Source: Gemmatimonadota bacterium (GTDB lineage Bacteria; Gemmatimonadota; Gemmatimonadetes; Gemmatimonadales; GWC2-71-9). Taken from it: DNA of 16,742 bases. The stretch spans positions 1 to 16,742 of the forward strand of contig QHTZ01000058.1 in the NCBI GenBank assembly GCA_003221005.1, written 5' to 3'. A model generated the notes under the pieces. That model searched no databases and was not told where the DNA came from. It saw nothing but the letters and a program-made list of their open reading frames with translations. How positions within the stretch are numbered: the stretch's first letter is position 1; each line of letters begins with the position of its first letter. This document shows, piece by piece, positions 112-13,749 of the stretch. The position numbers and the translations under genes were made by a program.

Positions 112-676
112 GGCCGCTGTACACGATGGTATCGTCGGGCAGACTGAGCAACTCCCGTTCGATACTCCGGATCAATGTGTCAAAGTCGCCGCCCGGAAGA
201 TCGGTGCGGCCGATCGATCCTTGGAAGAGCACATCCCCGACGAACACGGCCCCATGCCCCACGAAGGACACGCTGCCCGGAGAGTGCCCGGGCGTGTGGC
301 GGACCTGGAAGGTGAGGCCGCCCACGTGCACGGCGTCGCCGTGCGCCAGCGTCCGGTCGGGCGCCGGCAGCCGAGCGACGTCCATGCCGAACGCCACCCC
401 CTGCTCCTCGACGTGGTCGTACAGGCTCCGGTCCGCCGGATGCAGGAACACGGGCGCACCGGTCTCCTGCTTGAGGTGGGTCACCCCTACGACGTGGTCC
501 ACGTGCGCATGCGTCAACCAGATGGCGACGGGGCGCACGCCCAGCGCCGCGACCTTGTGTGCGATGAGATCCGTCGCTTCGCCGGGGTCGATGACCGCAC
601 ACTCACCGCTCGGCGGGTCTACCACGAGGTAGCAGTTTTCGAGGAAGCGACCGTTCGGGATCGCGACGACGTTCAC
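38..676 (-). CDS. MBL-fold metallo-hydrolase (glyoxalase II-like, YcbL/GloC type)
   Basis: THAHVDH (HxHxDH), HTPGHSPG, GDVLF, GRTDLPGGD, SGHG and terminal ERRHNPF motifs; GTG start overlaps the trxB stop (GTGA). Confidence 0.92.
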   Translation of the reverse strand: MNVVAIPNGRFLENCYLVVDPPSGECAVIDPGEATDLIAHKVAALGVRPVAIWLTHAHVDHVVGVTHLKQETGAPVFLHPADRSLYDHVEEQGVAFGMDVARLPAPDRTLAHGDAVHVGGLTFQVRHTPGHSPGSVSFVGHGAVFVGDVLFQGSIGRTDLPGGDFDTLIRSIERELLSLPDDTIVYSGHGLETTVGRERRHNPFLTGAYRLA

Positions 677-1683
677 GGGGCGACGGCTGCCTTCTCTTTC
701 TCGCGCAGGGCCGCGAGGTACTTCTCGACTGCGATCGCCGCGGTCGTGGCGTCACCCACAGCGGTCGTGATCTGGCGCGTGAGCTGGCTCCGGACGTCTC
801 CCGCCACGAACAGCCCCGGGATCGACGTCATCATGCGCTCATCGGTGACGAAGTAGCCCCCGGCGTCGTGCTTGAAGTGACCCTCCACCAGCTTCGTGTT
901 CGGCGTGAATCCAATGAAGATGAATACGCCCCCGACCTTGGGTCGGGAGTGCTTCCGCGTCGCGGTGTCTTCGAGCACCAGGTGATCGACACCCTTCTCG
1001 CCCCCGACGATTTCGAGGACCCGCTTGTTCCAGATCACCTCGATCTTAGGGTTCGCGAAGGCCCGCTCCTGGAGGATCTTGGACGCCCGTAGCTCGTCGC
1101 GCCGGTGCACGATGTACACCTTACTGGCGTAGCGGGTCAGGTAGTCCGCCTCCTCCACCGCAGCGTCGCCGCCGCCGATCACGGCCAGCACTTCGTCCTT
1201 GAAGAACGCTCCGTCGCACACCGCGCAGTAGGACACACCTTTGCCGGCGTACTCCTTCTCGCCGGGAACGCCAAGCTTCACCGGAGTCCCGCCGGCGGTG
1301 AGGATGACCGCGGGCGCGCGATGCACCCATCCCCGGGCCGTCACCACCTCGAAGGACCCGTCTGCGACCTTCCGGATACGATCCACCGTGTCCGTGACGA
1401 TCTCGGCGCCGAACTTCTTGGCGTGCTCGGTCATCTTCTGCGCGAGCTCCCACCCCTTGATGCTCTCGAAGCCGATGTAGTCTTCGATCAAGTCGGTATT
1501 GAGAAGCTCGCCGCCTGGCGCGCCGCGCTCGAGGAGGAGCGCTTTCAACATGCCGCGCCCGGCGTACATCGCGGCGCATAGCCCCGCGGGCCCCGCACCG
1601 ACGATGATGACGTCGTACTCGTCGGGGTGGACCTTGGCGGCGACGCTCTTGCCGATTTCACGATCCCGGTTGTGGTCGGTCAT
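673..1683 (-). CDS. trxB: Thioredoxin-disulfide reductase
   Basis: GAGPAG FAD motif, GVSYCAVCDG redox CxxC, GGGDAAVEEA and HRR NADPH motifs, TSIPGLFVAGD, RQITTAVGD. Confidence 0.95.
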   Translation of the reverse strand: MTDHNRDREIGKSVAAKVHPDEYDVIIVGAGPAGLCAAMYAGRGMLKALLLERGAPGGELLNTDLIEDYIGFESIKGWELAQKMTEHAKKFGAEIVTDTVDRIRKVADGSFEVVTARGWVHRAPAVILTAGGTPVKLGVPGEKEYAGKGVSYCAVCDGAFFKDEVLAVIGGGDAAVEEADYLTRYASKVYIVHRRDELRASKILQERAFANPKIEVIWNKRVLEIVGGEKGVDHLVLEDTATRKHSRPKVGGVFIFIGFTPNTKLVEGHFKHDAGGYFVTDERMMTSIPGLFVAGDVRSQLTRQITTAVGDATTAAIAVEKYLAALREKEKAAVAP

Positions 1684-2764
1684 CCGCTCGGAATTCCAAT
1701 CGCGGGGGATCCCCCTCCCCCGTCAGGGCCCGCGCCAACTGAGCGCGGAACGTCACCGTGTCAAATTCCACGTCGGGGCGTTGCGGCCCGCCTAATTTCG
1801 CGAGCGCGGCGCCGCCCACCACCTCGACGCCGTGGTCATTGCCACGCTCCCGGTGCAGCAACGCCGCGGCCGCCTGAATCAGCCCCTGCCACACAGCCGC
1901 CTCGTCTTCCCTAATAATAGAACGCCAGACTGTTTCCAAGGCTTCGTGGGCGAGCCAGTAGTCCCCGGCATTGAAGAGATCACGGGCATGCCGCAGGATC
2001 GCTGAACGCTCCGCTGGAGTCATGGGCGGTAACGGGCGGCCGTGGCAGCTCGAGACCGTCCCGATGAGCACGCTGGCCGGCTCCCCGCTCGCCCCTGCTG
2101 CCGCCACCAGCGCGTCCCCCGCGAGCACCGCGTCCACGGCGAAGGTGCCGACGCCGAACACGTGGTGGCGGCACACAAACAGTGCGGGGCCGCTCACCGG
2201 CTCGCCGGCGCCGCGCAACCGCCCCGCGAGTTCCGCCACCGCTTCGCTCATCTCCCAGGTGCGCGGCCGGCCGATCGCCGGGCACACCGCGGGCTCCACG
2301 CAGTGCGTTGGGCAGATCCAGTCGGCAAAGGAGACGTAGCGGGTGTGGTCGGGAGCGGGCGCGGCGCGATCGTAGGGCGTGCCGAGCGTGCCCGGCACCG
2401 GCGCGATCGCGACGGCGCGCGCCGGCCAGCGCGTCCGTGCACGCCGCACGACCCACTCGCACATGAGGTGCGGCATCAGGGGTGAGGGTACGATGTAGTC
2501 CTGGGGCTCGCCGGGGCGCGCCGGCGCAGCCTCCCCGAGGAACGCGTCGAAGTACGCCGTCCAGTCGCTCTCCACGAACGCGCGCTCCGGTGCCTCTCCC
2601 AGCTCGAGCCGTGCGCGGCAGCGCGGGTCGCGGTCCACCACGATCACCTTGCGGAACCGCGCTTTGCCCTTCGTCAGGGCCTTCGAGAGCTGAGCGGCGT
2701 AGAAGGTCCCGTAGCACCCTCCGCCGATCACGACGACGTCCCGCATCGTGACGACGTCGCTCAA
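1658..2764 (-). CDS. Hypothetical fusion: Rossmann-like Cys-rich domain (N-terminal) plus DUF309 domain (C-terminal, about 1658-2023)
   Basis: N-terminal VVVIGGGCYG...VIVVD dinucleotide-binding pattern, CPTHCVEPAVC and SSCHG; C-terminal LFNAGDYWLAHEALETVW...QGLIQAAAALLH matches the DUF309 pattern. Start is TTG 2764 (abuts the SDR stop) or ATG 2746. Confidence 0.75.
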   Translation of the reverse strand: MSDVVTMRDVVVIGGGCYGTFYAAQLSKALTKGKARFRKVIVVDRDPRCRARLELGEAPERAFVESDWTAYFDAFLGEAAPARPGEPQDYIVPSPLMPHLMCEWVVRRARTRWPARAVAIAPVPGTLGTPYDRAAPAPDHTRYVSFADWICPTHCVEPAVCPAIGRPRTWEMSEAVAELAGRLRGAGEPVSGPALFVCRHHVFGVGTFAVDAVLAGDALVAAAGASGEPASVLIGTVSSCHGRPLPPMTPAERSAILRHARDLFNAGDYWLAHEALETVWRSIIREDEAAVWQGLIQAAAALLHRERGNDHGVEVVGGAALAKLGGPQRPDVEFDTVTFRAQLARALTGEGDPPRLEFRADDRPQPGS

Positions 2765-3490
2765 CTAGGAGTCCCCGCCGGTAACGGGGAGGACCTCGCC
2801 CGACACCCCCTTAGCCTCGTCGCTCGCGAGGTACAGGACCGCCCGTACGAGGTCCTCGAGCTCCACCCAGCGCACGTTCTTGCTCTTCATCTGCGCGACG
2901 TTGTCTGCGGTGCGCATGGTGCCCGGAGCGACGGCGTTGACGCGCACCCCTCCGCTCTGGAACTCCCTGGCCAGGGCCCGTGTCAGGCCGGCGACTGCCG
3001 ACTTCGCGGCGATGTATGACGCCATCTGCGATTGCGGCCGGAGCACGGCGACGGACGCGAAGTTGACGATCGCCCCGCCGCCGCGCTCCAACAGCGCCGG
3101 GAGCGCGGCCTGCGAGACGTAGAACGTCGTCTTCACGTTGATGGCAAGCTCCCGCTCGAGCTGCTCCGGGGTGAGCTCGAGCGCCGAGCCGAAGTTCACC
3201 AGCCCGCCCGCCACGTTCACCACGACGTCGAGCCCCCCGAGCTGCTCCCGCGCCACGGCGACGGCCTGCCGCGCCGCCTCCGGCGTCGTCAGGTCGCCTG
3301 CCGAGGCGCGCACGTCGAAGCCCTGCGTGACGAACTCTTTCGCCCGGGTCGCGAGCCCGACCGCGTTCACGTCGGCGATCACGAGCTTCGCACCGGCCGC
3401 GGCGAACCCCAAGGCCACCGCGTGGCCGATCTGTCCCACGCGGGCAACGCCGGTGACGAGCGCGACCTTGCCGCGAAAATCAGGTGGCAC
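2765..3490 (-). CDS. SDR-family NAD(P)-dependent oxidoreductase
   Basis: GKVALVTG...IG, DVVVNVAG, IVNFAS, YIAAK (YxxxK), GVRVNAVAPG; GTG start overlaps the peroxiredoxin 3' end. Confidence 0.92.
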   Translation of the reverse strand: MPPDFRGKVALVTGVARVGQIGHAVALGFAAAGAKLVIADVNAVGLATRAKEFVTQGFDVRASAGDLTTPEAARQAVAVAREQLGGLDVVVNVAGGLVNFGSALELTPEQLERELAINVKTTFYVSQAALPALLERGGGAIVNFASVAVLRPQSQMASYIAAKSAVAGLTRALAREFQSGGVRVNAVAPGTMRTADNVAQMKSKNVRWVELEDLVRAVLYLASDEAKGVSGEVLPVTGGDS

Positions 3491-3938
3491 GGCCCGGCGG
3501 GTCGAGAGCCTCGACGATCACCTCGACGGGCGGCGCCCCGCGCGCGGCGAACGCCACCGTGCCATCGCGCGCGACCACGTACACCGAGCGCTGGATCCCC
3601 GTATCATCGTCCTTCAGGGCGTGATAGGCACGCGTGATCGCGCGCTCCGGATCGGACAGCAGCGGAAAGTTGAACTTCATCTTTTCGACGTAGCGCGCGT
3701 GGCTCTCGACCCCCGCCGGATTGACGCCGAAGGGCTGAATGCCTCGGGTGGTGAATGCTGCCAGCTCGTCGCGCACGGCGGAGAGTTGGCGGTTTCAGCC
3801 GGGAGTGTTGTTGCCAGGATAAAAGATGAGCGCGACGTGTCGCGTCTCGAGGACATCTGTCAGACGGTAGGTCTTGCCGTCGGACGCCGCCGCCGTGAAC
3901 GCCGGCGCCTTGCTGCCGACTTGGAGGAGCTCGCTCAT
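3480..3938 (-). CDS. Selenocysteine-containing peroxiredoxin (BCP/PrxQ, AhpC-TSA family), 152 aa, Sec at codon 48 (TGA 3795-3797)
   Basis: Reading through the TGA joins MSELLQVGSKAPAFT...LIFYPGNNTPG-U-NRQLSAVRDELAAF...FPLLSDPER...IQRSVYVVARDG in one frame. The TGA occupies the C of PxxxTxxC and the catalytic Arg is retained. The ATG overlaps the PHP stop (ATGA). Confidence 0.88.
3760..3790 (-). promoter_or_regulatory. Putative bacterial SECIS hairpin
   Basis: mRNA UGA-AACC-GCCAACUC-UC-CGC-[CGU]-GCG-C-GA-C-GAGCUGGC. Folded by hand: 7 of 8 bp in the lower stem, bulged upper stem, GU-containing apical loop starting after 17 nt downstream of the UGA. Confidence 0.65.
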
Positions 3939-4783
3939 CGCGTCGCGCTTCTCGCCGCCTCGTCGCGCCGTGCTTCCAGCCGTTCGAGCCATTCGAGCGG
4001 GATGTCGAGCCCGCCGAGCGGGGCGTGGGAATCGCCGAAGCGGGTGTCGCCGTGCCAATCCGAGCCGCCGCTGAGCGCGAGCCCGAGGCGTTCGGCGATC
4101 CGGGTGAGGCGGGCCTCGGTGGCGGAGGAGTGGCTCGGGTGGCGCACCTCGATCCCGTCGAGTCCCTGCTCCGCGAACTGCCGGATCTGTCCCTCCGTCC
4201 CGCGCTCGCCCAGATGCGCCGCCACCGCGACCCCACCGACCTCGTGAACCAGCTGGGTGACTCCCGCCAGCGTCGGCAGCGGCTTCTCGACGAACGCCGC
4301 GCGCCCCCGCCCGAGGAAGCGCTCGAACGCCTCGTTGATGTCGGCGCTCACGCCCCGCTCCACCAGCGCCCGCGCGACGTGCGGTCGCCCGACGGCGCCC
4401 CCGCCCGCCTGCTCTTCCACATCGGCGAGCGCGATTGCCACGCCCAGCTCCTGGAGCTTGCCCACCATCTGCTCGCCACGGCGCCGCCGAGCCTCCCGAG
4501 TCCCCGTGAGAAACGCCTGCAGCGCGGCATGGTCGGGGTCGAGGAAGTAGCCGAGCACGTGCAGCTCGCCCCACGGCGCTCGCGTGCTGAACTCGCAGCC
4601 GCATACCACCCGCACCCCGAGCGCGGCGCCTTCCCGCGCCGCTTCCGGCACGCCGGCCGTGGTGTCGTGATCGGTGAGAGCGATGGCGGTGAGGCCTGCC
4701 GCGTTGGCGCGGCGCGGCACCTCGGCGGGGAGGCATTCGCCGTCGGAGGCAGTCGAGTGACAATGCAGGTCAACGCGCGCCGT
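3935..4783 (-). CDS. PHP-domain phosphoesterase (TrpH/YciV-like)
   Basis: DLHCHSTASDG, ALTDHD, GCEFS, ELHVLGY, GRPHVA, DGIEV, GGSDWHG. Start placed at ACG 4781-4783, 6 nt after GGAGG; there is no nearby in-frame ATG/GTG/TTG upstream of the HxH motif. Confidence 0.85.
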   Translation of the reverse strand, partial: TARVDLHCHSTASDGECLPAEVPRRANAAGLTAIALTDHDTTAGVPEAAREGAALGVRVVCGCEFSTRAPWGELHVLGYFLDPDHAALQAFLTGTREARRRRGEQMVGKLQELGVAIALADVEEQAGGGAVGRPHVARALVERGVSADINEAFERFLGRGRAAFVEKPLPTLAGVTQLVHEVGGVAVAAHLGERGTEGQIRQFAEQGLDGIEVRHPSHSSATEARLTRIAERLGLALSGGSDWHGDTRFGDSHAPLGGLDIPLEWLERLEARRDEAARSATR

Positions 4784-5048
4784 ACGACGCCTCCGGTGAA
4801 GTCCAGGCGGGTTGTGAGGCCGCGAGCAGCTCGCGCCGTTGTCGCTCCGAGAGCTCGGCGAGCGCGGCGTCGCGGCTGCGGCTGCGGCTGCGGCTGCCGA
4901 GCGGCGCATAGCGCGTGAAGCGCCGCTTGCGCTCCGGTCCTGTCCCCTGCTGGAACACGAGGCCGAACTCGTCCTTCCCATACACCGTGACGCGTCCGGA
5001 CGGATAGACCTCCCACGTCTCGCCGTTCACCACGATCGTCCGTCTCAC
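4770..5048 (-). CDS. Hypothetical protein, 92 aa
   Basis: GTG start overlapping the upstream stop (GTGA); MRRTIVVNGETWEVYPSGRVTVYGKDEFGLVF...AWTSPEASYGAR has protein-like composition and fills the gap exactly. Confidence 0.75.
   Translation of the reverse strand: MRRTIVVNGETWEVYPSGRVTVYGKDEFGLVFQQGTGPERKRRFTRYAPLGSRSRSRSRDAALAELSERQRRELLAASQPAWTSPEASYGAR
4872..4897. repeat. Perfect hexamer tandem repeat (GCGGCT)x4 + GC, encoding (Ser-Arg)4
   Basis: Read directly from the sequence. Confidence 0.9.
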
Positions 5049-5361: not shown

Positions 5362-6792
5362 TCAGACCGCTCCCTCCGGGAAGTCCTGAAGCAGCGCTTT
5401 CACGTCGGCCAGGAAGCGGTCGGCGTCGGCGCCGTCCACGACGCGGTGGTCGTACGACATCGAGAGCATGCCCATCGTCCGGATCGCGATGGTGTCGGTG
5501 CCGTCCGGCAGCGCGACGACCTTGGGCCGCTTCTCGATCGCGCCCACGCCCAGGATCGCCACCTGGGGTTGATTGATGATCGGCGCGCCGGCGAACGAGC
5601 CGAACACGCCCGGATTGGTGATCGTGAACGTGCCCCGCTGGATCTCCTCGGGGCTCAGCTTCTTGGTGCGTGCGCGCTCGCCGAGGTCGTTGATCGCGCG
5701 CGCCAGTCCGAGCAGCGACATCTCGTCTGCGCGCTTGACGACCGGCACGATCAACCCCCAGTCGAGCGCGACGGCGATGCCGATGTTCACGTCGCGCCGA
5801 TAGATGATGTTGTCTCCGGACACGGCGGCGTTCACCACGGCGTGCTGCCGCAGCTGCTCGGCGCACGCCTTGGCGATGAACGCGAGGTAGGTGAGGCTCA
5901 CGCCCCGCTCGGCGTAGGACGCTTTGTGCCGCTTCCGCAGCTCGGCGATCTTGCTGTAATCGACCTCGAAGAAGCTGGTCACGTGCGCCGACACGCGCCG
6001 CGACATGATCATGTGGTCGGCGGTGATCTTGCGGATCTTCGAGAACGGCTCGACCCGGTCCCCGGGCCAAGGCTCGACGACGGGATGTTCGACGGGACCA
6101 GGGGTCGGGACGGGGGACGCGGGACGGGGGACGGGGGCACCGGGGCGCGCAACGGTTCGCGCCGCGCCGCTCTCGATGAACCCGAGGACGTCCTGCTTCG
6201 TCACCCGCCCGGCGAACCCCGTTCCAGGAATCGTGGCGAGGTCCAGCTGATGCTCGGCCGCGATCTTGCGCACCAACGGGGTGGATTTCTTACGGAGCCG
6301 CTCCTCGGCGGTCTCGGGCCCATCGCCGCCCTTCCCCGCCGGGTCGGACGGAGGCGGGAGGGGACGGACAGGGGCGGACGGCGCCGGTCCGGCGGAGGGG
6401 GCGCCCCCCGCAGCGGCGGGCGCCCGCTGGGCTGCCGCGGAGGGGGGCGCCGCCGACGCCGGACCGGCGGGGGATGCCGACGCGGCGGGTGCCCGCTGGG
6501 CTGCTGCGGAGGGGGGCGCGGCCGCAGCTGCGGACGGCGCCACCGCTCCGGCGTCGGTTTCGATCACCGCAACCAGCGTCTGCACCGGAACCGTCTCCCC
6601 CTGCTGCACCTTGATCTCGGCCAGGACTCCCGCCGCGGGCGCCGGGATCTCGGCATCCACCTTGTCGGTCGAGATCTCGAACAGGGGCTCGTCGCGCTTA
6701 ACCGGGTCGCCGAGCTTCTTCAGCCACTTGCTCACCGTCCCCTCGGCGATGGATTCGCCCATCTGGGGCATGAGGACGTCAATGCGGGCCAT
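5362..6792 (-). CDS. 2-oxoacid dehydrogenase E2, dihydrolipoamide acyltransferase
   Basis: Lipoyl domain MPQMGESIAEGT...EISTDKV, Ala/Pro linker, peripheral subunit-binding domain STPLVRKIA...GTGFAGRVTKQD, catalytic GTFTITN and DHRVVDG. Confidence 0.95.
   Translation of the reverse strand: MARIDVLMPQMGESIAEGTVSKWLKKLGDPVKRDEPLFEISTDKVDAEIPAPAAGVLAEIKVQQGETVPVQTLVAVIETDAGAVAPSAAAAAPPSAAAQRAPAASASPAGPASAAPPSAAAQRAPAAAGGAPSAGPAPSAPVRPLPPPSDPAGKGGDGPETAEERLRKKSTPLVRKIAAEHQLDLATIPGTGFAGRVTKQDVLGFIESGAARTVARPGAPVPRPASPVPTPGPVEHPVVEPWPGDRVEPFSKIRKITADHMIMSRRVSAHVTSFFEVDYSKIAELRKRHKASYAERGVSLTYLAFIAKACAEQLRQHAVVNAAVSGDNIIYRRDVNIGIAVALDWGLIVPVVKRADEMSLLGLARAINDLGERARTKKLSPEEIQRGTFTITNPGVFGSFAGAPIINQPQVAILGVGAIEKRPKVVALPDGTDTIAIRTMGMLSMSYDHRVVDGADADRFLADVKALLQDFPEGAV
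6107..6134. repeat. Heptamer tandem array GGGACG(G/C) x4 in the E2 linker
   Basis: GGGACGG GGGACGC GGGACGG GGGACGG on the + strand. Confidence 0.85.
6413..6524. repeat. 43-bp direct repeat (6413-6455 and 6482-6524) encoding AAPPSAAAQRAPAA twice
   Basis: Three mismatches, all at third codon positions; offset 69 nt. Confidence 0.85.
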
Positions 6793-6810
6793 AAGAACTC
6801 CGTCGGACCG

Positions 6811-7788
6811 TCAGTACTTCGCCAGCCATCTCACCGCCTTGACGATATCCTCCGTCTGCGGCAGCACGAAATCTTCCAGCGTCGGCGCATATGGCAGCGG
6901 CACGTCGTGAGCCGTGACGCGCATGATCGGACCGTCGAGCCACTCGAACGCCTGCTCGTTGATGCGGGCCGTGATCTCGCCGGCGACGCCGCCGGTGCGC
7001 GTGTCTTCGTGCACGATCAACACCTTGTTCGTCTTGCGCACCGTGCGCATGATCGCGGCGTCGTCCAGGGGCACGAGCGTCCGCAAATCGAGCACCTCGA
7101 CCGACACGCCCTCCTGCTGCGCGAGCTGCTCGGCGGCCTCGAGCGCCTTCCACACCATCGCCCCGTACGTCACGACCGACACGTCCTTCCCCTCGCGCGC
7201 GAGGCGCGCCTCACCGATCGGCGTGAGCACCTCCCCCCCGTCCAGCGGCTCCTTCACGCGCCGGTACAGCCACTTGTGCTCCAGATAGATGACGGGGTCC
7301 TCGTCCCGGATCGCGCTCTTGATCAACCCCTTCGCGTCACGCGCGGTGGCCGGGTAGACGATCTTCAGGCCGGGCGTGTGAAAAAACGCCGCCTCGACGT
7401 TCTGCGAGTGAAACGGACCACCGCGCACGTACCCACCACAAGGCCCCCGCACCACGAGCGGCGTCGGCAGATTGGCGCGATAGCGCGCGGTCGCGACGTA
7501 GTTCGTGAGCATGTCGTAGGCGCAGGAGATGAAGTCGATGAACTGCATCTCCGCGACGGGGCGCATCCCCATGTGAGCCGCACCGGCGGCGGCGCCGACG
7601 ATTGCCGCCTCCGAGATCGGCGTATCGATGACCCGGCGCTCGCCGAACCGCTCGACAAAGCCTTCGGTCACCTTGAACGCGCCGCCGTAGGCGCCCACGT
7701 CCTCGCCAAGGATGAACACGCGCTCATCGCGCTCCATCTCCTCCCACAGCCCCTGGCGGAGCGCTTCGAGGTACGTGACCTCGGCCAT
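6811..7788 (-). CDS. 2-oxoacid dehydrogenase E1 beta subunit (BCKDH/PDH type)
   Basis: LGEDVGAYGGAFKVT, DTPISEAAIVG, EMQFIDF, GGPFHSQ, DLRTLVPLD, LDGPIMRV. Confidence 0.95.
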   Translation of the reverse strand: MAEVTYLEALRQGLWEEMERDERVFILGEDVGAYGGAFKVTEGFVERFGERRVIDTPISEAAIVGAAAGAAHMGMRPVAEMQFIDFISCAYDMLTNYVATARYRANLPTPLVVRGPCGGYVRGGPFHSQNVEAAFFHTPGLKIVYPATARDAKGLIKSAIRDEDPVIYLEHKWLYRRVKEPLDGGEVLTPIGEARLAREGKDVSVVTYGAMVWKALEAAEQLAQQEGVSVEVLDLRTLVPLDDAAIMRTVRKTNKVLIVHEDTRTGGVAGEITARINEQAFEWLDGPIMRVTAHDVPLPYAPTLEDFVLPQTEDIVKAVRWLAKY

Positions 7789-8855
7789 CAGAGACCCCGG
7801 TACCAGTGCAACGGCGCGGCAGCCGGATGGACGTACACCGCAGGGAGCGCCGACTCGGGGACGGGTAGCGGGTCGTTCGCGCAGGCGTCGGTCGCCGCGT
7901 CGATCTCGGCCGCGACACGCGCGTCGATATCGCGCAATTCACGAGCATCGGCCCAGTCGTGATCCAGCAGCTGCTTCACGTACCGGTCGATCGGGTCGTT
8001 CTCGCGAGCCCACCGCTCGAGCTCCCCGGGGGGGACGTAGTGCTGATCGTCGTGTTCGGCGTGTCCCTTGCGCCGGTACGTCACGACCTCGAGGAACTGC
8101 ACCCCTTCACCGTGCCGCGCCCGCTCGGCCGCGCGCCGTGTAGCCTCGTACACCGCCAACACGTCGTTCCCGTCCACCGTGACCGCAGGGATTCCATAGC
8201 CTTTGGCCTTGTCGGCGAGCCGCGGCACGGCGAACTGCTTGTCCGGAGGCGTGGAGTAGGCCCAATGGTTGTACTCGCCGATCACCAGGAGCGGAACCCG
8301 CTGCACCGCCGCGAGGTTCAGGCCTTCGTGGAAGGTGCCGGTGGAGGTGCCGCCGTCCCCAATGTACACAAGCGCGACGCGCGGCTCGCTGCGCAGCTTG
8401 AAAGTCAGGGCGATCCCGGCCATCACCGGGATCATGTCCCCGAGGTGCGAAATCTGCCCCAGGAACCCGAGCTCGAGATCGCCGAAGTGAACGTTGAGCT
8501 CGCGGCCGGCGCTAGGCGAGGTGCCCTTCGCCATGTACTGCCGCAGGATCTGGAGCGGCTCCGCCCCCATGACGAGCATCGAGCCAAGGTTCCGGATGAG
8601 CGGCGACAGGACATCCTTGTGGCGCCCGCGCTCGAGCGCGTACGCCGAGCCCACCGACTCCCCCTCCTGCCCCAGGGAACGAAATAATCCCCCGATCACC
8701 TTGCTCTGCCGATACAGGGCGGTAAGCCGTTCCTCGAGCGTCCGGGTGAGACGCAGGTAGCGGTAGATTTCGAGCAGTTGCTCGCCCCGGAGGCCCGCCG
8801 GCGGGGGAGGCGACGGTGAAGCGGGAGCGGGGGCGGGGGCGGCACGCGACGTCAT
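7788..8855 (-). CDS. 2-oxoacid dehydrogenase E1 alpha subunit (TPP-dependent)
   Basis: GQEG, TPP motif GDGGTSTGTFHEGLN...YN, VDGNDVLAV, TYRRKGHAEHD, DPI; TGATG overlap with E1 beta. Confidence 0.93.
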   Translation of the reverse strand: MTSRAAPAPAPASPSPPPPAGLRGEQLLEIYRYLRLTRTLEERLTALYRQSKVIGGLFRSLGQEGESVGSAYALERGRHKDVLSPLIRNLGSMLVMGAEPLQILRQYMAKGTSPSAGRELNVHFGDLELGFLGQISHLGDMIPVMAGIALTFKLRSEPRVALVYIGDGGTSTGTFHEGLNLAAVQRVPLLVIGEYNHWAYSTPPDKQFAVPRLADKAKGYGIPAVTVDGNDVLAVYEATRRAAERARHGEGVQFLEVVTYRRKGHAEHDDQHYVPPGELERWARENDPIDRYVKQLLDHDWADARELRDIDARVAAEIDAATDACANDPLPVPESALPAVYVHPAAAPLHWYRGL

Positions 8856-9434: not shown

Positions 9435-11996
9435 TCAGCTCGCCCACGCGGGCTTGAAGCGCCGCAGCGTGAGGCTGTTGAGAACCACACTCAAGCTGGA
9501 CCACGCCATCGCCGCACTCGCGATCACGGGCGACAGCAGCACCCCTACGAACGGATATAGCACGCCCGCAGCGATCGGAATGCCCAACACGTTGTAGATG
9601 AACGCCCAGAAGAGGTTCTGCCGGATCGTTCGCATGGTGCGCCCCGCAAGGTCGAAGGCAGTGACGACGCCGCGCAGGTCGCCGCGCACCAGGGTGACGT
9701 CCGACGCCTCCATCGCGATGTCGGTCCCCGTGCCGATCGCGATCCCCACGTCCGCCTGCGCCAGAGCGGGCGCGTCGTTGATGCCGTCTCCGACCATCGC
9801 CACCCGCCTCCCCTGCTTCTGCACCTTGCGGACCAGGTCCGCCTTCTGCGACGGGAGCACTTCGGGCACGACCTCGTCGATCCCGACCTCCTTCGCCACC
9901 GCCTCCGCCCCCTTACGCGAATCGCCCGATACCATGATCACGGTGAGGCCGCGTCGCTTGAGATGTGCAACCGCTTCGTGCGAAGTGGGCCGGATCGGGT
10001 CCGAAATCGCGATCACCGCGCAGATGGTGTTGTTGACGACGACGATGACCGGGCTCCGGGCCTGTGCGGCCAACCGGTCAGCGTCCTGGCCCAGGGTCCC
10101 GAGCTCGAGGCTGCGTTCGCGCGCGTGCCGGAGGGAGATGACCTCGACGATGCGGCGATCCACGGTGCCGCGGACGCCCCGGCCCTCCATGGCCGCGAAT
10201 TTGTCGACCGGGAGGATCTCGACCTGCTTGTCGCGGGCTGCCTTGAGGATCGCGTGGGCGAGCGGGTGCTCGGAGCGCTGCTCGACCGAGGCCGCCCACT
10301 TGAGCACCTCGGCGGACGAGATCGGCGTGCCGTCGGACTTCTTGGCGCTGACGATGTGCGTGACCGCGGGCTGTCCCTCGGTGATGGTCCCGGTCTTATC
10401 GAGCAGGACCGTCCGGACCCGCGAGAGCTTCTCGAGGCCTTCCCCGCTCCGGATCAGGATGCCATACTCCGCCGCCTTCCCCGTTCCCACCAGCAGCGCC
10501 GTCGGTGTCGCGAGGCCGAGGGCGCAGGGACAGGCGATGATGAGGACTGTCACGAGCGCGACCGTCGCGAACAGCAGCGCGGGCTCCGGGCCGACGTCGA
10601 ACCAGACCACGAACGCCGCGATCCCGAGGGCGATCACGATCGGCACGAACACGCTCGCCACCTGGTCCGCGACCCGCTGGATCGGGGCCTTGGTGGCCTG
10701 CGCATCTTCCACGAGCTGCACGATCTGCGCGAGCGCCGAGTCCTTGCCCACTCGCGTCGCGCGGAGCGTGAAGCTGCCCGTCGTGTTCAGCGTGCCGCCG
10801 GTGACGTGGTCGCCGATCCGCTTCGCCACCGGCATCGGCTCCCCCGTGAGCATCGACTCGTCGACGGCCGACACGCCCTCCGTGACGACACCGTCCACGG
10901 AGACCCGTCCGCCGGGCTTCACGACCACGAGGTCGCCCGGGACGACCGCCTCCACGGCGATGTCGCTCTCGCGGCCGTCGCGCAGCACGTGCGCCGTCTT
11001 CGCCTTGAGTCCAGCGAGCCGCCGGATCGCCTCCGAGGTACGCCCCTTGGCGCGAGCCTCGAGCAGGCGCCCGAGCAAGATGAGGGCGATGATCGCGGCG
11101 ACCGCTTCGTAGTAGACGTCGGCCGGGAGCCCGGCCTGTGTGAACAGGCCGGGGGCGACCGTGGCCACGAGTGAGTAGAGATACGCCGCGGCCGTGCCTA
11201 CGCCGATCAGCGTGTTCATGTCGGCGGTGCGGTGCTTCAGCCCGCTCCAGGTGCCGCGGTAGAACTGCTGCCCGGACCAGAGGATGACCGGGACCGTGAT
11301 CACCGCAAGCCCCCACTTCACCCACTCGGGATCGAGCCTCCCTCCCGGATCGAGCAAGGCCCGCAACCGTTCGGCGGACGGCATGAGCAGCCGCCCGAGC
11401 AGGTCGAAGCGCTTGGCCGTTTCCATCGTGGTGAGGGAGCGCGTGGCCATGAGGAGCATGGAGCCGAGCATCGCGACGACCGCCACCACCGCCGCGAGCG
11501 CGAATCGTCCGGCCAGCGTCCGGACCTCCCGCGCCCGCGCCAGACGCTCGCGCTCGACCGGATCCTCCGCCGCGATCGGTGCCGCGACTTGAAATCCGGC
11601 GGCCGCCACGGCGCGCTCCAGCGCCTCCGCCGTGGTCACTCCGGGCACGTAGTCCACGGTAACCATCTCCGTCGCCTGGTTCGCGACCGCCCGCACGATG
11701 CCCTTCACGCGCGCGAGCTCCCGCTCGAGCGGTGCGACGCTGGGCGCGTAGTGCAGATCGGTGACGGCGAACGCGACGGTGGCCAGGCCGCAGTCGTAGC
11801 CCGCCCCGCGGACCGTCTTGATCAGCTCGGCGACGTGAGTCTGCGCGTCGTCGTAGTCCACCGCAGCCTTGGCGGTCGCATAGTTGACGGCTGCAGAAGT
11901 GACGCCGTCGGCGTTGCTGAGCGCGTCCTGCACCGTGGCGGCGCAGCTGGCACAGCTCATCCCCTCGATCGGCAGGACGATGCGGGCTCTACTCAT
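9435..11996 (-). CDS. copA: Cu(I)-translocating P1B-1 ATPase
   Basis: [42 protein letters not shown] and MAWSS transmembrane metal ligands; ATGA overlap with the upstream gene. Confidence 0.95.
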
Positions 11997-12427
11997 GATT
12001 CAGTCTCGTGCAACTTGTGGGGTGACGTCGCGCGCCGCCGGTCGCTCCCGGCCGGCTCGACGACGAGGAGCCCCTTCAGCATGTTCATCCCGCAGCGGAA
12101 CGGGAATTCTCCCGCCTCGAGCGGCGTGAACTCCACGGCGGTGGTCTGGAACGCGGGCAGGGCCACGTCGATCCCGAACTTGGGGAACACAAGGCGCTCG
12201 GAGCAGTCGGCCGTCTCATCGCGATAGAACTGGATCCGCACCGGATTCCCGGCCTGCACCACGATCGTGTCGGGGGTGTAGCCGCCCTTCACCGTCACGC
12301 GCACTTCCTGCACGTCTCCCGCCTCTCGCGCGACCACCGCGGGGCCACGCGAGAAGAGGAAGTACCAGAGCACCCAAACGATCGCGGCAGCACCGAAGGC
12401 GGTGACGGCGATTTGCGCGACGGTCAC
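11993..12427 (-). CDS. Membrane-anchored cupredoxin-domain protein (CupA-like), 144 aa
   Basis: N-terminal TM helix ([16 protein letters not shown]), [22 protein letters not shown]; GTG start overlapping the ino1 stop. Confidence 0.85.
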
Positions 12428-13749
12428 GCCTTCTCGTAGTACTCGATCCCGAGGTGGGTGATCTGCTCCTCCCCCATCATCCAGCGCAGCGTGTTCTTGA
12501 GCTTGGTTTGCTGGATGAAGAGGTCGTGCTCGGGGTAGAGCCCAGGGGCCGTCTGCGGGCTCTTGAAGTAAAACGACAGCCATTCCTGAATCCCGGACAT
12601 GCCGGCCCGCCGTGCGAGGTCGAACATCAGTGCGAGGTCGAGCACGATCGGGGCGGCGAGAATCGAGTCGCGGCACAGGAAATCGACCTTGATCTGCATC
12701 GGATAGCCCAGCCACCCGAAGATGTCGATGTTGTCCCAACCCTCCTTATTGTCGCCGCGGGGGGGGTAGTAATTGATGCGCACCTTGTGGAACACGTTGC
12801 CGTACAGCTCCGGGTACATCTCGGGCTGGAGGATGTACTCGAGCACGCCGAGCTTCGACTCCTCCTTCGTCTTGAACGACTCCGGGTCGTCCAGGACCTC
12901 GCCGTCACGGTTGCCGAGGATGTTGGTCGAGTACCAGCCCGACAGGCCGAGCATCCGGGCCTTGAACGCCGGGGCGAGCACCGTCTTCATCATCGTCTGG
13001 CCCGTCTTGAAGTCCTTGCCGCCGATCGGCACTCCCCGCTCGTCGGCCAGACACTCGAGCGCGGGGATGTCGACGGTGAGGTTCGGCGCGCCGTTCGCAA
13101 AGGGGACGCTCTCCATCAGGGCCGCATAGGCGTATAGCATCGACGGGGCGATGGCGGGGTCGTTCTGGTCCATCGCCTTCTCGAACGTCGCGAGCGTCTG
13201 ATGCGTGGGGCCGGGCTGGAGAAACACCTCGGTGGACGCCGCCCAGATGATCACGAGCCGGTCCGCACCGGACGCGCGCTTGAACTCTCGGATGTCTTGG
13301 CGCAGCTGCTCGGCGAGCTCGCGCTTCGTCTTTCCGCGCTTGACGTTGCTGCCCTGGAGCCGCTTGACGTACTGCTGGTCGAACGCCGCCGGCAGGGGCT
13401 GAATGCCCTTCAAAAAGGGCGCGATGGGCTCGAGGTGCTTGCCTTCGAGCACCCCCGCCTTGACGGCGGCGGTGTAGGCGTCGTCCGGGATCGGGTCCCA
13501 CGCGGCGAACACCAGGTCGCCCAGCTCGGCCAGCGGGACGAACTCGCGGATCTTCGGCGCGCGCTTCTCCGCCCGCTTGCCCAGCCGGATCGTCCCCATT
13601 TGAGAGAGCGACCCGATCGGGAGAGCGCGACCACGGCGCACGTTCTCCACGCCCGCGATGAACGTGGTGGAAACGGCGCCCAAACCGACGAGCATGACGC
13701 CAAGTTTGCCCTTCGGGGGGGCGATCTCCCGGCCGAGCTCCTGTGCCAC
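12424..13749 (-). CDS. ino1: myo-inositol-1-phosphate synthase
   Basis: GLGAVSTT, AASTE, NGAPN, GKDFKTGQT, NILGNRDG, YYPPRGDNKEGWD, RDSILAAP, YFKSP; GTG start with AAAGGA RBS just after the upstream stop. Confidence 0.95.
   Translation of the reverse strand: MAQELGREIAPPKGKLGVMLVGLGAVSTTFIAGVENVRRGRALPIGSLSQMGTIRLGKRAEKRAPKIREFVPLAELGDLVFAAWDPIPDDAYTAAVKAGVLEGKHLEPIAPFLKGIQPLPAAFDQQYVKRLQGSNVKRGKTKRELAEQLRQDIREFKRASGADRLVIIWAASTEVFLQPGPTHQTLATFEKAMDQNDPAIAPSMLYAYAALMESVPFANGAPNLTVDIPALECLADERGVPIGGKDFKTGQTMMKTVLAPAFKARMLGLSGWYSTNILGNRDGEVLDDPESFKTKEESKLGVLEYILQPEMYPELYGNVFHKVRINYYPPRGDNKEGWDNIDIFGWLGYPMQIKVDFLCRDSILAAPIVLDLALMFDLARRAGMSGIQEWLSFYFKSPQTAPGLYPEHDLFIQQTKLKNTLRWMMGEEQITHLGIEYYEKA

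Follow-up and report, generated by a model that had tools for sequence, protein, structure and literature searches.

The 16,742-nucleotide (nt) stretch analysed here, contig QHTZ01000058.1 of a Gemmatimonadota bacterium of the order Gemmatimonadales (hereafter the window, to which all coordinates refer unless another contig is named), encodes on its minus strand a small peroxiredoxin whose reading frame holds a single internal TGA. This TGA is codon 48 and falls exactly on the peroxidatic position of the enzyme. The explanation that best accounts for the observations as a whole is that UGA48 is read as selenocysteine (Sec) and that the product is a 1-Sec peroxiredoxin working by the mechanism proposed below; we put the probability of this reading at roughly 90%. 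Taken by itself, the identity of residue 48 as Sec is almost certain, judging from the comparisons that follow. The in-frame TGA had been noticed in a preliminary description made from the letters of the window, which interpreted the gene as a hidden selenoprotein. Our analysis confirms the observation and supports the interpretation.

Translation with TGA as U gives a protein of 152 residues that starts MSELLQVGSKAP and reads HVALIFYPGNNTPG-U-NRQLSAVRDE around the UGA, the residues directly in front of it being IFYPGNNTPG-U. Under translation table 11 the frame is broken: the upstream open reading frame (ORF) stops at FYPGNNTPG, and a 98-amino-acid (aa) ORF runs from a GTG at 3776 to 3480. 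The full translation matches the Pfam family AhpC-TSA (PF00578) with an E-value of 5.1e-32 and 110.9 bits (cut-off 26), residues 7-130 aligning with positions 1-123 of the 124-position profile straight across the TGA, and this single full-length match indicates that the two parts belong to one protein. The coordinates and the features reported in the preliminary description hold, and the strand (minus) is added here: the lone TGA takes the place of the C of PxxxTxxC (written there as PGNNTPG*), both halves are intact in one frame, and the gene overlaps its neighbours at both ends. On the 5′ side the ATG (3938) shares an ATGA with the TGA stop of a PHP-domain gene, and on the 3′ side the GTG start of a short-chain dehydrogenase (SDR) gene, at 3490, lies 11 nt ahead of the peroxiredoxin stop. 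It had also been foreseen that gene callers would report just the 98-aa piece, and exactly that fragment is the one deposited (P0025). Among the 120 best database matches, 29 are C-terminal fragments of 94-99 aa, including the window's own P0025, and several of these bear the source name 'peroxiredoxin Q/BCP'. Cys is present in each of the 12 full-length database entries that were fetched.

Conservation of the UGA codon among relatives

We compared the gene with its relatives at several depths. Among the 25 best matches in 41 related genomes (46-99% identity), 23 contain an in-frame TGA and two contain none. When 20 of these loci were cut out, the TGA stood at exactly the same column in 19 and a TGC replaced it in one (locus L025). 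The best 80 of 143 relatives in species-representative genomes, of which 79 are titled Gemmatimonadota or similar and one 'uncultured bacterium', gave TGA in 78 loci and TGC in two. In an evenly drawn sample of the phylum, an orthologue was found at E<=1e-30 in 79 of 301 genomes, including 62 of the 124 that belong to the same family. Seventy of these 79 orthologues have a TGA inside the match (a count that excludes genome G290, and for which the column was verified in the fetched loci), and nine are Cys forms: G290 has TGC at the site, and the other eight have no stop inside the match. Unpublished genomes account for one of the 20 loci (G020) and three of the 79 matches (G083, G176 and G201), and the conclusions are the same without them.

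In the Cys-form homologues, TGC stands at the column of the TGA. The preliminary description had proposed to look for TGA or a Cys codon in close homologues, and these have TGA (78/80) and not TGC or TGT. A TGA conserved in this way across genomes is neither an error nor the mark of a pseudogene, and its conservation, together with the one full AhpC-TSA match, is far beyond chance.

Selenocysteine machinery and other candidate selenoproteins

The genome from which the window comes (G000; 2.79 Mb in 141 contigs, 93.9% complete, 69% G+C) contains the genes for Sec insertion. Profile searches recovered selA (532.6 bits), selB (310.7 bits; it runs to a contig end and is not quite complete) and selD (376.9 bits), as well as a tRNA-Sec (82.5 bits, anticodon TCA), all above their cut-offs; the tRNA was called as such by both Rfam and ARAGORN. 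A tRNA scan of the window found none. The selD gene itself has an in-frame TGA and reads GAGUACK, with U at the known Sec/Cys site. Only four selenoprotein families were probed in G000, and the further three, formate dehydrogenase alpha (FdhA), a SelW-like/Rdx protein and an AhpD-like/CMD protein, each gave a TGA (Table 1). Together with the peroxiredoxin, this makes at least five candidate selenoproteins in the organism. The earlier supposition that this bacterium has the Sec trait is therefore borne out, both by the machinery (selA, selB, selD and tRNA-Sec are all present) and by further selenoprotein genes with TGA.

A second, distant set of AhpC/TSA-like sequences (24-33% identity to the query) has one in-frame TGA in many related genomes, for example at G029:C2:315932-316354, G023:C2:549885-550283 and G033:C2:860422-860847. 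The four weaker AhpC/TSA-like matches of G000 have no in-frame TGA. This set is possibly a different thioredoxin-fold selenoprotein family.

A constrained hairpin downstream of the UGA

Downstream of the UGA, the coding sequence can form a hairpin with the layout of a bacterial selenocysteine insertion sequence (bSECIS). The core hairpin has eight pairs and two one-base bulges, with 17 nt between the UGA and the loop and with G then U at loop positions 2-3; a possible outer stem extends it (Table 1). The published bSECIS model calls for a loop of 3-9 nt with a G in its first two positions, a spacing of 16-37 nt, a stem of 4-16 base pairs and a minimum free energy of -7.5 kcal/mol or lower (PMC13188914; this and all other papers are cited here from partial text). 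The loop (CGU), the spacing and the eight pairs lie within these limits, and the predicted energy, -6.2 kcal/mol for the core alone, falls to -14.2 kcal/mol when the outer stem is included.

Over 80 distinct Sec-form sequences, nt 13-33 vary only at the third base of codon 57 and, in a single sequence, at one further base, and the core pairs are the same in all 80, bar one pair that is broken in one sequence. The putative SECIS core is thus almost letter-uniform across the Sec forms. A comparison of synonymous codon use points in the same direction. In 88 distinct Sec-form coding sequences (CDSs), codons 49-58 have a mean entropy of 0.18 bits, whereas the mean is 1.14 bits for the 55 codons elsewhere that are both conserved and degenerate (Mann-Whitney p=2.6e-6). 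When only codons of at least four-fold degeneracy are considered, the values are 0.095 and 1.37 and the distributions do not overlap. Leu52, Ser53, Ala54, Val55 and Arg56 are each encoded by one and the same codon wherever the residue is kept (87 or 88 of 88), whereas two to four codons serve for nearby Pro, Gly, Thr and Val residues that are conserved to the same degree. The contrast is drawn within the gene and is independent of the relatedness of the genomes, and the freeze of synonymous sites starts directly after the TGA. In L132, a divergent Sec form (53% identity) that belongs to a different family within the phylum, SSLRDD replaces SAVRDE; at the same distance from the UGA this sequence can form the clean hairpin CUCUCA-AGUU-UGAGAG, whose loop again shows G then U, so that the geometry is kept and the letters differ. 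These data strongly suggest, but do not prove, that a SECIS element lies downstream of the UGA.

Protein family and proposed mechanism

To place the protein we used an alignment of 35 protein sequences, in which P41, T45, U48 (C in the Cys forms) and R117 are all invariant. An AlphaFold2 model built on this alignment (predicted local distance difference test, 92.7; predicted template modelling score, 0.88) was compared with known structures by Foldseek, and the top matches were all peroxiredoxins. For this predicted model the highest TM-scores were obtained with the 1-Cys enzyme AhpE (0.87-0.88, root-mean-square deviation 1.7 Å), and structures of BCP/PrxQ gave 0.78-0.83. By sequence, the closest entries of the PDB are Sulfolobus Bcp1 (3drn, 4.9e-17), a Burkholderia peroxiredoxin (5enu, 2.8e-15) and mycobacterial AhpE (about 7e-12).

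The protein of the window has no cysteine. The same is true of the correct CDS in 77 of 78 Sec-form orthologues, the remaining one having a single Cys (74 of 80 orthologues were scored as Cys-free by script, and three more have a Cys only beyond an overrun stop). The absence of cysteine makes the protein a 1-Sec peroxiredoxin. Two more specific assignments were tried and rejected: the PrxU equivalog (NF040737), for which the score of 42.6 bits falls short of the cut-off of 270, and an atypical 2-Cys enzyme of the BCP/PrxQ kind, with 68.2 bits against 140 for BCP (NF006960), 59 against 260 for PrxQ (NF053650) and, there being no Cys at all, no resolving Cys. The protein is a member of the superfamily that stands outside every curated named subfamily, and it is best described as a predicted 1-Sec peroxiredoxin, small and free of cysteine, of the BCP/PrxQ-AhpE type.

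We propose that UGA48 would be decoded as selenocysteine, with SelB and its Sec-tRNA(Sec) recruited by the hairpin 13-33 nt downstream of the UGA, as the presence of the machinery and the constraint on the hairpin suggest. The resulting selenolate would sit in the usual Pro41/Thr45/Arg117 pocket and, by the chemistry of the family, would reduce H2O2 or organic hydroperoxides and be converted to a selenenic acid. Because the protein has no resolving cysteine, peroxiredoxin chemistry implies that an outside thiol would have to resolve the selenenic acid and so recycle the enzyme. The conserved gene order with trxB, which encodes a thioredoxin-disulfide reductase, makes the thioredoxin system the likeliest reductant; on this argument from gene order, the recycling thiol is most likely thioredoxin, which would be kept reduced by the downstream TrxB. 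The role in peroxide defence proposed in the preliminary description is inferred from the sequence.

The protein might be a genuine selenoprotein and yet work chiefly in relaying or sensing thiol/selenol redox state instead of as a bulk peroxidase, or it might depend on a reductant other than thioredoxin; candidates are the SDR and the DUF309 protein encoded with it and, on the model of mycobacterial AhpE, a low-molecular-weight thiol. The missing resolving Cys would fit such a role, as would the closest fold being that of 1-Cys AhpE, an enzyme recycled by a non-classical route, and the SDR and DUF309 genes do lie between the peroxiredoxin gene and trxB and are conserved with both. Every catalytic residue of a peroxiredoxin is kept, however, and TrxB is the sole recognisable disulfide reductase in the string of genes. 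On balance we regard a relay function or another reductant as unlikely.

Points against selenocysteine insertion and other readings of the UGA

A number of results weigh against the interpretation of the gene as a Sec-peroxiredoxin recycled through TrxB. The 66-nt fold downstream of the UGA has a predicted energy of -18.2 kcal/mol, which corresponds to z = -0.44, with 65 of 200 shuffled sequences as stable or more so; on this ground fold stability was rejected as evidence for a SECIS. The conserved core alone, at -6.2 kcal/mol, is weaker than the published limit of -7.5. The outer stem is partly kept in the relatives (54-75 of 80 paired per position) and shows no significant covariation, its five compensatory cells not being above those of shuffles. 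The core also has no covariation support, with a score equalled or exceeded by 49 of 500 shuffles; seven of its eight pairs never vary, and the covariation test is for this reason uninformative. A search of the window with Rfam at gathering thresholds returned nothing, and the conservation is partly at the protein level, NRQLSAVRD being found in Cys forms as well. Turning to the protein, no NCBIfam peroxiredoxin equivalog cut-off is reached, none of the genes of the string was recognised as that of a thioredoxin, and TrxB is linked to the enzyme by gene order alone. Finally, the RNA evidence is weak and was not counted as expression: two metatranscriptome runs gave just three short contigs on the whole stretch, among them one of 151 nt at 3584-3734 and another with four differences over 3760-3819 that is probably from a relative, and the libraries may contain DNA.

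The unremarkable stability of the hairpin and its lack of covariation support would also suit a UGA that is a true stop, that is read through without Sec (by near-cognate Trp or Cys), or that is followed by re-initiation at GTG 3776 to give the 98-aa product. The GTG sits within the hairpin loop, and Sec insertion is predicted here from the sequence. Yet the 98-aa product would be without Pro41, Thr45 and residue 48, that is, without the whole active site, and these codons are strictly conserved. The TGA, moreover, aligns with the catalytic Cys of the Cys-form homologues, all parts of the Sec machinery are encoded in the genome, as are four other Sec genes whose TGA occupies a canonical site, and the synonymous freeze begins right behind the TGA. 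We therefore consider termination, read-through or re-initiation very improbable.

Alternatively, an error of sequencing or assembly could have created the TGA, or the peroxiredoxin gene could be dead through a nonsense mutation of recent date. The frame is indeed broken under table 11, the database copy of this sequence is the 98-aa piece only, and the genome is a metagenome-type assembly in 141 contigs. Set against this, independent genomes share the TGA (78 of 80 in one comparison, 19 of 20 in another), even where protein identity has dropped to about 49-53%, and both halves are conserved at the protein level. A base-call error had been raised in the preliminary description; contigs from two independent soil runs of other studies span 3783-4200 and are identical to the window at 3795-3797. 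Conservation of the TGA has in practice already refuted the explanation by error or dead gene. Least credible of all is a genome-wide reassignment of TGA to Trp or Gly (NCBI tables 4 or 25), which has only the open frame in its favour and is excluded by the use of TGA as the stop of nine of the ten Pfam-supported genes of the window, the peroxiredoxin gene included, and opposed also by TGA as the final stop of 72 of 80 orthologues by script (in three of these past the true stop), by the 69% G+C of the genome and by a TCA-anticodon tRNA that Rfam and ARAGORN both call tRNA-Sec.

Contigs from two soil-metagenome runs reach a summed word depth of 790-1190 over 3765-3826, compared with about 6-20 elsewhere. 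This high-depth stretch covers the putative SECIS and the active-site codons, and contigs of 39 nt pile up on it. Such a pile-up would be expected where many members of the community have this invariant stretch in common.

Comparison with known Sec-peroxiredoxins

Knowledge of Sec-peroxiredoxins of the TxxU kind dates back to 2001-2005, and the present gene is an addition to a known family. Their occurrence in bacteria, on which the preliminary description relied, is well established (PMC1088965, PMC1794560, PMC13188914). A set from the Sargasso Sea comprises 43 Sec-peroxiredoxin genes, assigned to COG1225 (PMC1088965), complete genomes yielded 12 Sec-peroxiredoxins with five inferred Cys-to-Sec events (PMC1794560), and a 2026 review places Sec-peroxiredoxin among the experimentally known selenoproteins, citing the enzyme of Eubacterium acidaminophilum (PMC13188914). 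The TxxU family (COG1225/PF00578) and the protein of the window share the AhpC/TSA fold and Sec for the peroxidatic Cys in PxxxTxxU; the family was found through Cys/Sec pairing, and its Cys homologues are widespread. In contrast to the soil Gemmatimonadota considered here, the carriers of the family that these sources name are mostly anaerobes (for example Deltaproteobacteria and Clostridia). The likeness is drawn from published descriptions and not from a sequence alignment, and the subfamily may differ.

PrxU of E. acidaminophilum, the only biochemically studied Sec-peroxiredoxin cited in the partial text of the 2026 review (PMC13188914), likewise has Sec at the peroxidatic site. The window protein differs from it both in the score given above and in length, with 152 residues compared with a profile of 233 positions. 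AhpE of Mycobacterium tuberculosis (1xvw, 1xxu, 4x1u) is the best structural match, aligned over 148-150 columns, and resembles the window protein in its size, its single redox-active residue and its lack of a resolving Cys; the two differ in sequence (26-27% identity, E-value 7e-12) and in the active residue, which is Cys in AhpE and, as predicted, Sec here. Among BCP/PrxQ proteins, Sulfolobus Bcp1 is the best match by sequence and Xanthomonas PrxQ (5iiz) another structural relative, and Cys-form relatives are named 'peroxiredoxin Q/BCP' in the source databases. Unlike these proteins, that of the window scores under the cut-offs of NF006960 and NF053650 and has no Cys five residues past the peroxidatic residue.

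Among the papers listed by full-text searches, none, judging by titles and the starts of abstracts, is about Gemmatimonadota selenoproteins; the supplements of PMC1794560 (Tables S6/S7) and of PMC5029168 may list the phylum, and in the partial text of PMC8318568 it appears merely as a bin label. A Sec-peroxiredoxin is probably unreported for this phylum, and what is new may be the host lineage and the scale. General knowledge of selenoproteins is unchanged by the finding.

Gemmatimonadales are usually regarded as aerobic. A survey of 2006 reported that the use of Sec falls as oxygen rises (PMC1794560), which makes a common Sec-peroxiredoxin in a soil phylum mildly unexpected. Because the gene is routinely deposited in this lineage as an inactive 98-aa fragment, the antioxidant capacity and the selenium dependence of the abundant soil Gemmatimonadota are under-called. 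The family forms a large natural set of Sec/Cys pairs, with about 90% Sec forms, and its unusually uniform putative SECIS makes it a convenient system in which to ask what retains Sec at a peroxidatic position and by what course Cys comes to replace it. A wider proposal, which we hold to be doubtful, is that soil Gemmatimonadales maintain the Sec machinery, despite its cost, mainly to serve a small selenoproteome with redox functions, with this 1-Sec peroxiredoxin as its most widespread member, recycled by a dedicated PHP-Prx-SDR-DUF309-TrxB module and served by an almost letter-invariant SECIS that is shared across the order. If true, this would run contrary to the published fall of Sec use with oxygen and would provide a natural system for studying the benefit of Sec to a peroxiredoxin, for example resistance to over-oxidation.

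Cys-form homologues

Nine of 11 fetched Cys forms drop the frozen codons, with CAG in place of CAA and with TCG, GCA, CGT or CTG. The Cys forms L122 and L123 are one and four positions, respectively, off the frozen stretch. L122 keeps the core SECIS letters save for the last position, and L123 does likewise with one more change; the core hairpin has a predicted energy of -3.3 kcal/mol in L122 and -4.0 in L123, compared with -6.2 in the Sec form. In L122 the TGC is followed, directly after codon 48, by the Sec-form string AACCGCCAACTCTCCGCCGTGCGCGAC, and this locus looks like a recent replacement of Sec by Cys with a relic SECIS. Confinement of the Cys forms to genomes without the Sec trait was ruled out: selA is kept in six of ten Cys-form genomes (in one of them split) and had no match in four, the completeness of the ten being 83-100%.

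In the only Cys form from the same genus (L025/L117), codon use downstream of the TGC is relaxed, and a second, new Cys stands six residues further along (CNRQLSC). In its genome the selA match is split (G001:C35:264033-265353) between adjacent frames that cover profile positions 2-160 and 161-451, which could reflect a lineage that is losing the Sec trait or a frameshift in the assembly. More distant homologues in the phylum (L130 and L131) do possess a resolving Cys, five positions beyond the peroxidatic residue. One database relative, P0065 (123 aa), shows Ser where the others have Sec or Cys (TPG-S-NRQLSAVRDE) and has an odd N-terminus; this sequence may be a translation artefact of some pipeline.

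Gene neighbourhood

The peroxiredoxin gene is the second of a same-strand, overlapping string that encodes the PHP-domain protein, the peroxiredoxin, the SDR, a DUF309-containing protein and TrxB, in an order that is kept in 80 related loci (Table 1). The last gene of the string, trxB, lies about 1.8 kb downstream of the peroxiredoxin gene. For the PHP-domain gene, the NCBIfam matches are all under cut-off.

Table 1. Positions of the candidate selenoprotein gene, its elements and neighbours in the window, and of further TGA-containing genes on other contigs (C) of genome G000.
Feature	Position	Strand	Remarks
Peroxiredoxin CDS, predicted to contain Sec	3938..3480	minus	152 codons plus terminal TGA at 3482..3480; translation with TGA=U
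Predicted Sec codon UGA, codon 48	3797..3795	minus	peroxidatic position of PxxxTxxU; TGA in most orthologues, TGC in Cys forms
Active-site loop codons Pro41-Thr45 (PGNNT)	3804..3818	minus	P41 and T45 invariant in the 35-sequence protein alignment
Arg117 codon, conserved peroxiredoxin arginine (GIQRSV)	3588..3590	minus	invariant; aligns with Arg of GIERS in PDB 5enu
Putative bSECIS core	3765..3785	minus	nt 13-33 from the U of UGA; CUCUCCGC / loop CGU / GCG(C)GA(Y)GAG
Hairpin with possible outer stem (GCCA...UGGC)	3760..3790	minus	predicted energy -14.2 kcal/mol in the window
PHP-domain phosphoesterase	4981..3935	minus	Pfam PHP 5.5e-12; beside the orthologue in 78/80 loci
Short-chain dehydrogenase (SDR)	3490..2765	minus	Pfam adh_short_C2 1.6e-45; 77/80 loci
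DUF309-containing protein	2764..1658	minus	Pfam DUF309 9.9e-19; 65/80 loci, many missing cases being loci cut by locus ends
Thioredoxin-disulfide reductase (trxB)	1683..673	minus	TIGR01292 364 bits, cut-off 343.45; 62/80 loci, many missing cases being loci cut by locus ends
selD (GAGUACK)	C46:14499-15422	minus	TGA at canonical site
Formate dehydrogenase alpha, FdhA (ARIUHS)	C14:12934-16179	plus	TGA at canonical site
SelW-like/Rdx protein (CVVU)	C6:10094-10306	plus	TGA at canonical site
AhpD-like/CMD protein (CRYU)	C88:1010-1228	plus	TGA at canonical site

The DUF309-containing protein has 368 aa, and its DUF309 match is confined to the C-terminal part; the N-terminal part of about 250 aa has a Rossmann-like start (VVVIGGGCYG) and no match in Pfam or NCBIfam. 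The string is preceded, at 5362-8855 of the minus strand, by genes for E1 alpha, E1 beta and E2 of a 2-oxoacid dehydrogenase, and a heavy-metal P-type ATPase with an HMA domain, adjoining a cupredoxin-like protein, is encoded at 9435-12739 on the same strand.

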